A stretch of 64,000 bases of DNA from Longimicrobiales bacterium (GTDB lineage: Bacteria > Gemmatimonadota > Gemmatimonadetes > Longimicrobiales > Gaopeijiaceae). A program made the position numbers and the translations under genes. The notes beneath the pieces were generated by a model. The model searched no databases and was not told the origin of the DNA. It saw only the letters and a program-made list of their open reading frames with translations. The stretch spans positions 682,001-746,000 of the forward strand of contig OY730414.1 in the NCBI GenBank assembly GCA_963422615.1, read 5' to 3'. Of the stretch, positions 47,821 through 49,881 are shown in pieces (position 1 is the first letter of the stretch; every line of letters starts with the position of its first letter).

Positions 47821-49881
47821 CTACCTTACTGCCTCCTCGAAGATTTGCGAAGTGTCGTTCCCGAAGATGTCGATCACCTTGACCAAAATCCGGTAGCGGC
47901 CCGGCCGCTCGTACCTGTTCACGTCGGACACAAGCGGAAGTTTGCGCTCTTTGCGGGTCCGGTACGCGACCCACCCCTGCATGAAGGTGTCATTGCGAAA
48001 GTCCCAGTCCACCGCCCAGTAATCGATGTAGTCCGACCACTTGGTGATTTTGGTACGCACAGCATCCGGGATAAGATCGGCGTTGGGGATGACGAAATCT
48101 TCCAGATTTACCTGAACGGAGAGCTTGTGCGTGTGCGAAATGTTTGCTTCCAGGTACGCTAGCTCGAAGAAGCGAACGTCTCTCCGCGCGGCGGCTTGTT
48201 CCTCCATCACTTCGCGTGGAATTTGAAGAAGGAGAAGATTTACGCCCTTTGCGCGCGCCTCCCGCAAAACGAGCTCGTGGAGCCCCATCTCCCACTCCCA
48301 TCCCAGCACGTGGAGTTCACGCTGCTCAAGCTTGGCGCATTCGTCGACCGCCTCGGCGATCTGGCCGATTGTGACCGGTGCATCCACCGCGCCGATGTGG
48401 ACCAGGACATTGCCCTTCCTACCGTGTAGATGAAGAAAGCTGGAAATCGGTTGGGCGCCGTAGAGTTTGAGGATGAAAGCCAAGTATTCGTACAGTGCAT
48501 ACTCTGTGGCATGGAATTTGCTTGCTTGCTTGCTTGCTTGCTTGCTTGCTTGCTTGCTTTCCTTATCCTCGAATGTGAAGAATTGCCAGTATTGGCGCTC
48601 GTACTTGCCGAGATTCAGTATCTCGAAAGGTTTGCAGTCTTTTATGCCGAGCAGTCGTTTGCGGGTGACGTGGACGCCCCAGCGGCCAAGGTCACAGCCG
48701 ATCCAGCGGCGGCCGAGTTTTTCGGCGACGGCCAGGGTGGTGCCGGAGCCACAAAAGAAGTCGGCGACGAGATCGCCAGGGTTGGAGGAGGCTTTGATGA
48801 TCCGATCGAGCAGCTTCTCCGGTTTCTGGGTGGGGTAGCCGATTCGCTGTGAATCATTGGCCGACAAATACTGAATGTCAGTCCATATGTCACCTATGGG
48901 CAATCCATGATATTCGTCAGCATATAGTTTGTATCTAGGTTTGCCAGTACCAGTCCAATAAATAAGCAGTGGGTTTTTGGAGAGTCTTTCGTCAAATGTT
49001 TCTTGTGTCCAGCGCCATCCAACATCAGATATCACTTTCCGGTTTCCAATTATTCTTATCTCTCCTTTGCTGCTGTAATTTGAAGATTGTTCCAGAGCGA
49101 TGTGTTGAAACCGTCGCCCCGTTTCTTTTTCTACATGCGGGAAACGTTTTTTCAGGTCGAGAGAAACCTTGCTGAACTGAAGATTGAATACATTGTTTGG
49201 CCAAGAACTTGCGTAACATAAAATATTATCAGTTATTGTATCATGTCTTTTGTCAGATAAACTATGTGCTGCATATCTTTTCCACGAAATTATGTTGATC
49301 AAGTTGTCCCCTCCGAACACTTCGTCCATTGCCAATCGAATCAAGCTATTCACTCGCCAGTCACAATGCACATAGATGCTGCCTCGGTCCGACAACAGCT
49401 CACGCATCAGCGTCAGCCGATCATAGATCATGGTGATATACGAATCCAGCCCTCGCCCCCACGTGTCCCGGTACGCCTTCTCCTCAATCAGGGACTGCTT
49501 CTTGAGCAACTCTTCACCCGACTCTCCCACCTGCGCTTTGAACGAAAAGTCCGCGCCCGTCGCGAATGGTGGGTCGATATAGATGAGGTCGATCTTGCCG
49601 GCGAACTTCTCCAGCAGCGACCCCATCACCAGCAGGTTGTCGCCCCAGATCAGCTTGTTCTTCCACCCCTCTTCGAAGGTGTCCCCCTCCTTTCCCGTGT
49701 AGACGTTGAAGAGCGTGCCCTGCTGCAGCTGCTTTCTCGCCTCGCGGGTGGCACGGCTCTCGTTGATCGTCTCGATAACCTGGAACGGGAGGTTGACTCT
49801 GGGCACCTGCTTGAGCGTGCCGTCCTCGTTGTACTTGCCGGGCCATACCAGCTCGGTCCTGGTGATGTCGATCTTGGCCAT
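47821..49881 (-). CDS. mod: Type III R-M DNA methyltransferase Mod subunit (beta class), putatively phase-variable
   Basis: LIWGDNL, IYIDPPF (motif IV), YPTQKPE, DFFCGSGTT (motif I), long C-terminal extension ending VKVIDIFGNDT; directly upstream of res. Confidence 0.95.
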   Translation of the reverse strand: MAKIDITRTELVWPGKYNEDGTLKQVPRVNLPFQVIETINESRATREARKQLQQGTLFNVYTGKEGDTFEEGWKNKLIWGDNLLVMGSLLEKFAGKIDLIYIDPPFATGADFSFKAQVGESGEELLKKQSLIEEKAYRDTWGRGLDSYITMIYDRLTLMRELLSDRGSIYVHCDWRVNSLIRLAMDEVFGGDNLINIISWKRYAAHSLSDKRHDTITDNILCYASSWPNNVFNLQFSKVSLDLKKRFPHVEKETGRRFQHIALEQSSNYSSKGEIRIIGNRKVISDVGWRWTQETFDERLSKNPLLIYWTGTGKPRYKLYADEYHGLPIGDIWTDIQYLSANDSQRIGYPTQKPEKLLDRIIKASSNPGDLVADFFCGSGTTLAVAEKLGRRWIGCDLGRWGVHVTRKRLLGIKDCKPFEILNLGKYERQYWQFFTFEDKESKQASKQASKQASKFHATEYALYEYLAFILKLYGAQPISSFLHLHGRKGNVLVHIGAVDAPVTIGQIAEAVDECAKLEQRELHVLGWEWEMGLHELVLREARAKGVNLLLLQIPREVMEEQAAARRDVRFFELAYLEANISHTHKLSVQVNLEDFVIPNADLIPDAVRTKITKWSDYIDYWAVDWDFRNDTFMQGWVAYRTRKERKLPLVSDVNRYERPGRYRILVKVIDIFGNDTSQIFEEAVR
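48518..48557 (-). repeat. Tetranucleotide simple sequence repeat (GCAA)10 inside mod
   Basis: Ten perfect TTGC units on the + strand; translates as SKQASKQASKQASK, currently in frame. Confidence 0.97.

Follow-up and report, generated by a model that had tools for sequence, protein, structure and literature searches.

A (GCAA)10 tract behind the catalytic core of a Type III methyltransferase in an uncultured Gemmatimonadota bacterium: a candidate restriction switch

Introduction

If a simple sequence repeat (SSR) lies not at the start of a methyltransferase gene but behind the part that encodes its catalytic core, what would a change in repeat length switch off? The question is raised by a mod gene of Type III that lies in the genome of an uncultured Gemmatimonadota bacterium, which is available as one contig of 2.57 Mb with 64% GC. 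All bacterial names among the 120 best matches to its RecA (86-91% identity) belong to Gemmatimonadota. Slipped-strand mispairing is an established mechanism of repeat-length change, and in modA the repeat tract lies near the 5' end of the gene. A preliminary description of a 64,000-nucleotide stretch of this genome, here called the window, drew attention to a GCAA tract late in mod and proposed that it could turn restriction off while methylation is retained or altered. All positions given there were correct, and its characterization of the host as a high-GC lineage unlike the known pathogens agrees with the genome. Articles referred to by PMC number or DOI are cited for their accessible parts.

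Results

The mod-res locus

The features of the locus are listed in the order in which they are encoded.

47821..49881, minus strand: mod, Type III beta-class N6-adenine methyltransferase, 686 aa, in frame (PADLOC MTase_III, Pfam PF01555)
49564..49575, minus strand: motif IV DPPF, aa 103-106, invariant in an 88-sequence alignment
48849..49333, minus strand: exchangeable target-recognition region, aa ~183-345, 40% GC, swapped in frame in sample X6
48742..48756, minus strand: motif I FCGSG, aa 376-380, with F376, G378, S379 and G380 invariant in the 88-sequence alignment
48518..48557, minus strand: (GCAA)10 simple sequence repeat in the linker between the methyltransferase (MTase) core and the C-terminal domain; encodes ESKQASKQASKQASK
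47824..48516, minus strand: 231-aa C-terminal region lost on frameshift; its first half, aa ~460-554, aligns with the EcoP15I C-terminal domain (CTD)
48419..48421, minus strand: TAG reached by 11-unit (also 8- and 5-unit) alleles; product of 488 aa, the last 32 missense
48240..48242, minus strand: stop reached by 9-unit (also 12- and 6-unit) alleles; product of 545 aa, the last ~92 missense
47824..47828, minus strand: TAAGG, putative Shine-Dalgarno-like site read from the sequence, 5 nt before the res ATG
45029..47818, minus strand: res, 929 aa, intact, no long repeat; ATGAGKT, DEAH and ETKG motifs; ResIII PF04851 and REase_III

To judge from their motifs and profile matches, the two genes are a Type III restriction-modification pair, as had been proposed. 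Mod matches the PADLOC MTase_III profile PDLC03633 (E 3.7e-130), Pfam PF01555 covers its residues 97-398, and motif IV, the target-recognition domain (TRD) and motif I follow each other in the order of beta-class Type III Mod proteins. The adjoining gene has SF2 helicase and nuclease motifs, and its product also matches NF046055, below that profile's cut-off. The target-recognition region has a mean identity to homologues of 0.24, as compared to 0.64-0.79 in the conserved regions. The res ATG (47818) is located 2 nt past the mod TAG. A frameshift in mod could possibly uncouple res, but this is not certain because of the TAAGG sequence 5 nt upstream of the res ATG.

The GCAA tract

Along Mod, DPPF (aa 103) and FCGSG (aa 376) precede the tract, which is (GCAA)10 on the minus strand and (TTGC)10 on the plus strand at 48518-48557, and lies in frame at aa ~442-455 of the 686-aa open reading frame 49881..47821. 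TRF called it at 48518-48559 with 10.5 copies and 100% matches; among the window's 28 TRF rows it scores highest and is alone in having more than three copies, in line with the earlier remark that no other long perfect microsatellite was noticed there. Slippage in silico reproduced the predicted outcomes: nine units gave a 545-aa Mod ending at 48240-48242 and eleven units a 488-aa Mod ending at the TAG at 48419-48421. The C-terminal 231 aa (some 230 had been estimated) are kept only with 3n+1 units (1, 4, 7, 10, 13).

The length of the tract is not due to chance, because none of ten base-shuffled copies of the genome contained a tetranucleotide run of more than 5 units, as against 10 and 11 observed, and no second (GCAA)3+ was found anywhere in the genome on either strand. 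The SSR sits inside an open reading frame, its unit is not divisible by three and it exceeds the length of 3 units that serves as threshold in PMC5909438, where tracts of such length are treated as phase-variable. By these sequence characters, the system would belong with the SSR-switched Type III mod genes.

Position of the tract in the Mod structure

The AlphaFold2 model of Mod was built with 88 sequences and has a mean pLDDT of 67, with aa 414-475 below 50. Its best Foldseek match is EcoP15I Mod (4zcf_A, E 4.3e-20), and in the VIA alignment residues 80..554 of the model correspond to 100..644 of 4zcf_A (ModA), with Z 21.5, rmsd 14.3 and 382 aligned residues. Residues 78-~433 span the entire length of stand-alone beta-class methyltransferases in VIA alignments with M.BceJIV (Z 23.9, rmsd 2.3, 231 aligned), MboIIA (Z 22.4) and RsrI (Z 21.9). 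In the model, the GCAA tract thus sits after a complete beta-class catalytic core, which agrees with the earlier suggestion that slippage leaves the core intact.

The first half of the region after the tract resembles the Res-binding CTD of EcoP15I, an assignment that we hold with moderate confidence because the rmsd is high. A conserved helix at 458-473 falls into the low-pLDDT stretch, and the model leaves it possible that this helix packs on the core. The remaining residues 555-686, about 130 C-terminal residues beyond the EcoP15I alignment, were assigned no fold. A single-sequence model of the C-terminal region had a pLDDT of 44.9, 30 look-alike clusters in the ESM Atlas shared no common Pfam family, and the PDB sequence search matched the core of Mod only. 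Co-folding of Res(1-700) with the Mod C-terminal region gave no answer (score 0.00), and under-represented genomic words were uninformative about the target site.

Homologues and origin of the tract

The preliminary description had asked whether homologues lack the tract, and those compared do. The motif SKQA occurs in 0 of 120 homologues of Mod, and the GCAA repeat was absent from 160 related loci, where repeats within the mod match did not exceed 8-base runs, three-unit tetramers and a single (GGA)5. The linker measures 13-16 aa in 113 of the 120 homologues versus 28 aa here, and the other seven have unrelated, non-repeat insertions at the same linker. The part behind it was kept in every homologue (120/120), with 220-239 aa after the linker. 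Because the homologues have a short linker without the repeat and occasional insertions at this very site, the comparison identifies the tract as derived, having grown within an indel-tolerant linker. Downstream of mod, res was present at 152 of the 160 related loci; at six the contig was too short and two were without res.

Shorter homologues (443-582 aa, 11 viewed) were considered as natural truncations and rejected, since most appear to be cut off or frameshifted further on. One homologue (P0151) loses its frame at precisely this linker, where another (P0166) terminates. Frameshifts near aa 413-418 at two loci (L184, L187) were likewise discarded as examples of phase variation, as no repeat is present.

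The exact Mod and Res sequences were absent from the collection searched, and no near-identical protein or locus was found in the databases. The best homologues are 62-69% identical over their full length (73% at most over aa 1-440), and the solved Mods of H. pylori and Mycoplasma are weak matches. Membership in the named groups modA/B/D/H/J/L/M/U, for which more than 90% identity is the criterion, is therefore unlikely. Within the order, the C-terminal part of Mod was matched in 3 of 301 genomes, the source genome included, and the sole other strong match (G142) is 55% identical overall and has no tract. Since the cassette is patchy within the order and related loci are spread over many phyla, the mod-res cassette was likely acquired horizontally.

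A second TRD allele in another sample

Part of the window is contained in 8 of 17 listed sequencing runs, and none of the runs listed as containing it is of RNA. Four of the 17 were aligned; these alignments leave out 48511-48568. No raw reads of X9 aligned to the window, with about 1% of the run sampled. In X5 and X6, which come from two studies, contigs stop at the tract with 36 and 39 letters unaligned; such ends give no unit count, but their lengths would fit a repeat longer than the assembly word, and the X6 strain apparently also carries a long tract. Of the 15 aligned records of X5, 12 have 99% or more identity, and X5 may be the source sample.

Mod-res occupies the same site in X6 as well; its 23 differences over 3.6 kb correspond to a backbone identity of about 99%. 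Between 48848 and 49334, a 308-nt segment takes the place of 485 nt without loss of frame, and the flanks carry 0-23 differences over 0.3-3.6 kb. The replaced segment coincides with aa ~183-345, and the comparison identifies it as a second TRD allele, so that allelic exchange of the TRD occurs at this locus. The locus thereby shows multiple TRD alleles in a backbone of more than 90% identity, if two alleles only. Among the 21 differences that were classed, 3 are located in mod and 18 in res, of which 12 are non-synonymous, 6 are synonymous and none is a stop. Ten of the 18 cluster in res codons 575-679 (window 45784-46094), of which seven are non-synonymous.

Repeats in defence genes across the genome

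With a long tract defined as a G/C run of 11 or more or as 10-11 tetramer units, the genome holds 14 long tracts, nine of which fall within the 2.7% of the genome that is taken up by defence genes; the binomial p is about 1e-11, for spans that were drawn after the tracts had been seen and with three tracts sharing one locus. The nine are found in this mod, a second Type III mod, pglX, and genes for a Type IIG enzyme, a Type ISP enzyme (three tracts), a DrmMI/IIG-like methyltransferase and an HsdR_N protein. At least 11 methyltransferase loci were found, six with a tract and five without. Besides mod, the genes concerned are as follows.

L031:2976-5960 (G000 27975-30959): second Type III mod (PDLC03632), G15 at aa 772 of 994, in frame
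L032:4664-8402 (G000 1150663-1154401): BREX pglX split at G11, out of frame, within brxC-pglX-pglZ-brxL
L033:6178-10143: Type IIG enzyme, C21 between the MTase and TaqI_C domains, in frame
L034:5900-12220 (G000 1193900-1200219), minus strand: Type ISP gene, C13 and C20 at the start of the TRD
L035:6222-10828 (G000 2156221-2160827), minus strand: DrmMI/Type IIG-like MTase, (GACA)11 and a G10 that is below the threshold
L036:5179-6357: HsdR_N-domain protein, C16, in frame

The second Type III mod has motif I at 454, followed by the G15 about 318 aa later, and res alongside. Its orthologues carry the tract at aa ~97 (L247, L297) or ~610 (L260), and none is present in six of nine close ones. The split pglX is a candidate phase-variable BREX gene, or else reflects a homopolymer error. 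In the Type ISP gene, about five short, mutually similar TRD-like cassettes (xLIxSPxNxTVFxxLxTxxxPDL-like) follow the tracts in different frames, and the C-terminal half of the specificity domain is located upstream of the gene and bears a G11; the locus is a candidate multi-state specificity switch or a rearranged locus. The DrmMI-like gene, which sits between an SNF2 helicase and a DEAD/MZB helicase, contains duplicated alternative segments after the G10 and the (GACA)11, with two NPWGIxFQxMFxMANDS and three WxxxRxIxxATxERT blocks. It thereby resembles the specificity switching of the H. pylori JHP1272 type, and it also has a non-repeat frameshift near 2159150. The five G/C tracts outside defence genes (17-21 nt; G000 195635, 1222612, 1263940, 1658011, 2361882) are mostly apparently intergenic and are possible promoter or terminator switches.

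Runs of G14+ were found in 18 of 22 selected, mostly complete genomes of the same family. Five relatives in the family (G069, G075, G112, G117, G138) combine 14-21 beta-class MTase matches with the most G14+ matches (73-361 overlapping each); an exception is G116, with 15 MTase and 25 G14+ matches. Sixty-one selected stretches around beta-class MTase matches yielded five Type III mod genes with an in-gene poly-G of 12-29. The run lies before motif IV in L247 and L297 (out of frame) and L298 (in frame), and after motif I in L260 (in frame) and L306 (out of frame). Early and late tracts thus coexist within orthologous groups, for which reason a late position need not imply a special outcome.

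Discussion

Comparison with known switches

Is the locus as unusual as it first appeared? SSR-switched mod genes are well known, and in PMC5909438 as many as 662 of 3805 mods (17.4%), environmental bacteria included, carry SSRs. Like the groups modA/B/D/M, the system has a tetranucleotide in the mod open reading frame that causes frameshifts, a conserved 5' and 3' backbone with an exchangeable TRD, and an adjacent res (PMC5909438). Unlike in those groups, the tract here comes after motif I, and the host is an uncultured member of the Gemmatimonadota.

A late tract is not distinctive in itself, as one past the TRD is known in H. pylori. In modH (HP1522/jhp1411) and in HP1369-HP1370 (M.HpyAXVII), the tract is located mid or later in a Type III mod and the OFF form is truncated, but the repeat is poly-G rather than GCAA. 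The modH tract lies 104 bp past the DRD (PMC5700931), as compared to a distance of about 290 bp downstream of the swapped region in our case, where motif I, too, has been passed. The OFF forms of both H. pylori genes are inactive (PMC5700931, PMC3936762), though their tracts need not lie past motif I. Repeats late in the gene that change specificity, and thereby modify function without abolishing it, are described for the Type IIG enzyme JHP1272/HP1353-54 (PMC3936762) and for HP1471 (PMC4209511), in which a frameshift leaves the N-terminal enzyme and removes a C-terminal module. This resembles the situation here, except that these enzymes toggle an extra TRD, whereas the candidate module in Mod is a region similar to a Res-binding CTD. 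SSRs in H. pylori res/hsdR (PMC12003011) are likewise proposed to toggle cleavage at constant methylation; there the repeat is in the nuclease gene, while here it would act via the Mod C-terminus. C-terminal phase variation has also been proposed in H. canadensis (PMC2823697).

The closest structural relative is EcoP15I (PDB 4ZCF), to judge from the NTD-MTase-TRD-MTase-CTD layout, the Foldseek ranking and the CTD alignment. It differs in being only 17-19% identical and in lacking a counterpart to the additional C-terminal residues of Mod (aa 555-686), and the accessible part of PMC4490356 describes no SSR in it. In the literature searched, which covered few subscription papers, we found neither this lineage nor a Type III mod with a tract past a complete core, between core and CTD, and no SSR-switched mod in Gemmatimonadota is mentioned among the matches listed. 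The accessible parts of PMC3230613, PMC7544214, PMC10123105 and PMC7379913 add nothing further on tract position; a truncated but active state of ModP was not found in that of PMC10123105.

What the tract might switch

The GCAA tract is very probably a slipped-strand switch. The perfect purity of its ten units, its above-chance length, its derived state, the concentration of long tracts in defence genes and the TRD swap all point in this direction, and three of the five poly-G-bearing family orthologues are out of frame. An in-frame TRD swap in a backbone of about 99% identity is, moreover, the allelic pattern of the known phase-variable mod groups. We propose that slipped-strand mispairing would add or remove GCAA units. 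With 10 (or 7, or 13) units, the full Mod would form Mod2Res and provide both methylation and restriction, whereas with 9 or 11 units it would lack the 231-aa C-terminal region, carry a missense tail and recruit Res poorly or not at all, so that restriction would be lost or weakened. The late site would represent an indel-tolerant linker in which the repeat can grow without harm to the ON enzyme. Frameshift suppression at SSRs can render OFF states leaky (10.64898/2026.04.01.715767).

By a narrow preference, we favor a classical ON/OFF switch, in which out-of-frame alleles lose useful methylation along with restriction. The CTD of EcoP15I ModA contacts Res (PMC4490356), and the OFF allele of ModH5, with its tract 104 bp past the DRD, is inactive (PMC5700931), although the 104-bp distance suggests that the ModH tract may precede motif I and that its geometry differs from that of the GCAA tract. 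Against an ON/OFF switch speaks the modeled structure, in which the truncated product keeps the whole core. Furthermore, selection on restriction could be weak, given that 12 of the 18 differences listed for res in X6 are non-synonymous, and loss of the CTD may not abolish Res binding, because the MTase domain of EcoP15I ModA also touches Res (PMC4490356) and Mbo45V Mod, which methylates alone and restricts with Res (10.64898/2026.05.01.722158), has only about 30 residues beyond the aligned core. Judging from Mbo45V, a large CTD is not needed for methylation or Res binding in every Type III Mod.

A more tentative hypothesis is that the Mod dimer, once deprived of its CTD, goes on methylating the same site but is unable to recruit Res. 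As the chromosome would then stay pre-methylated, the return to ON would not be self-destructive. In the model, residues 78-~433 cover complete stand-alone methyltransferases; EcoP15I Mod dimerises via its NTD and MTase domains and the CTD of ModB is solvent-exposed (PMC4490356); and the 567-aa Mbo45V Mod, alignable no further than residue 538, needs no Res for methylation (10.64898/2026.05.01.722158). The tracts of both Type III mod genes in the genome lie past motif I (aa 442 vs 374-380; 772 vs 454), and res is intact. However, the C-terminal part is kept by all 120 top homologues, the protein may be made unstable by its missense tail (32 or 92 aa), and the helix at 458-473 may pack on the core, with pLDDT below 50 over aa 414-475. 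No TCAG methylation results from HP1369, in which a frameshift close to the 3' end truncates the protein (PMC3936762), and the H. pylori modH5 OFF allele is inactive (PMC5700931), though the tract of either gene may precede motif I. Against the idea of a special switch speaks, moreover, the coexistence of tracts before motif IV and after motif I in orthologous groups of the family. With similar reserve, one may imagine that a repeat between core and CTD toggles restriction with methylation kept, within a genome-wide phase-variable defence repertoire of two Type III systems, BREX PglX, Type IIG, Type ISP with its TRD cassettes, a DISARM-like methyltransferase and the HsdR_N protein.

We also considered the possibility that the repeat is a tolerated linker expansion, whose out-of-frame variants are purged or fixed as pseudogenes, rather than an adaptive reversible switch. 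The non-repeat insertions in 7 of 120 homologues show what the linker tolerates, the five long G/C tracts outside defence genes and the poly-G-rich relatives suggest that repeats may accumulate in the lineage, and 0 variant alleles were seen among the aligned runs, which gave 0 X9 raw reads and contigs that end at the tract. Yet the unit is 4 and not 3 or 6, its purity is perfect, long tracts of different units are concentrated in restriction-modification and BREX genes, and the tract seems long in two studies with differing TRDs, which makes this reading improbable. A sequencing or assembly artefact is very unlikely: the exact unit count comes from one assembly and the non-repeat frameshift in the DrmMI-like gene makes small indel errors possible, but mod is in frame and homologous on either side of the tract, where the contigs of two studies end alike.

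Possible role

Returning to the switch that we favor, its role would be population-level variation in restriction barriers, which is likely given that at least six methyltransferase loci of the genome, mod among them, bear repeats. Because res is intact and the repeats are concentrated in defence genes, phase-variable defence appears to fit at least as well as the regulatory phasevarion that the preliminary description put forward, although a regulon is possible. A variable restriction barrier, as has been shown for the phase-variable Cj0031 of C. jejuni (PMC4889913), is favored here over a dedicated regulator.

The interest of the locus lies in the post-core position of the tract and in the genome-wide set of repeat-bearing defence genes in an unstudied phylum. 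A real switch would extend the range of repeat-driven variation in restriction barriers, so far studied mostly in small-genome pathogens, to an uncultured phylum of high GC and, within one genome, to many types of defence. If the truncated Mod methylates, it would offer a way round self-restriction when the restriction system turns back on, and mod genes with a frameshift, annotated as OFF or pseudogenic, could encode active methylases. The three natural alleles would make a simple test of the function of the C-terminal domain in Type III Mod proteins.

Upstream of mod, a short CAGGAGT direct repeat is located at window 49930-49947; X6 is without one 7-nt unit, which possibly represents variation in promoter spacing.
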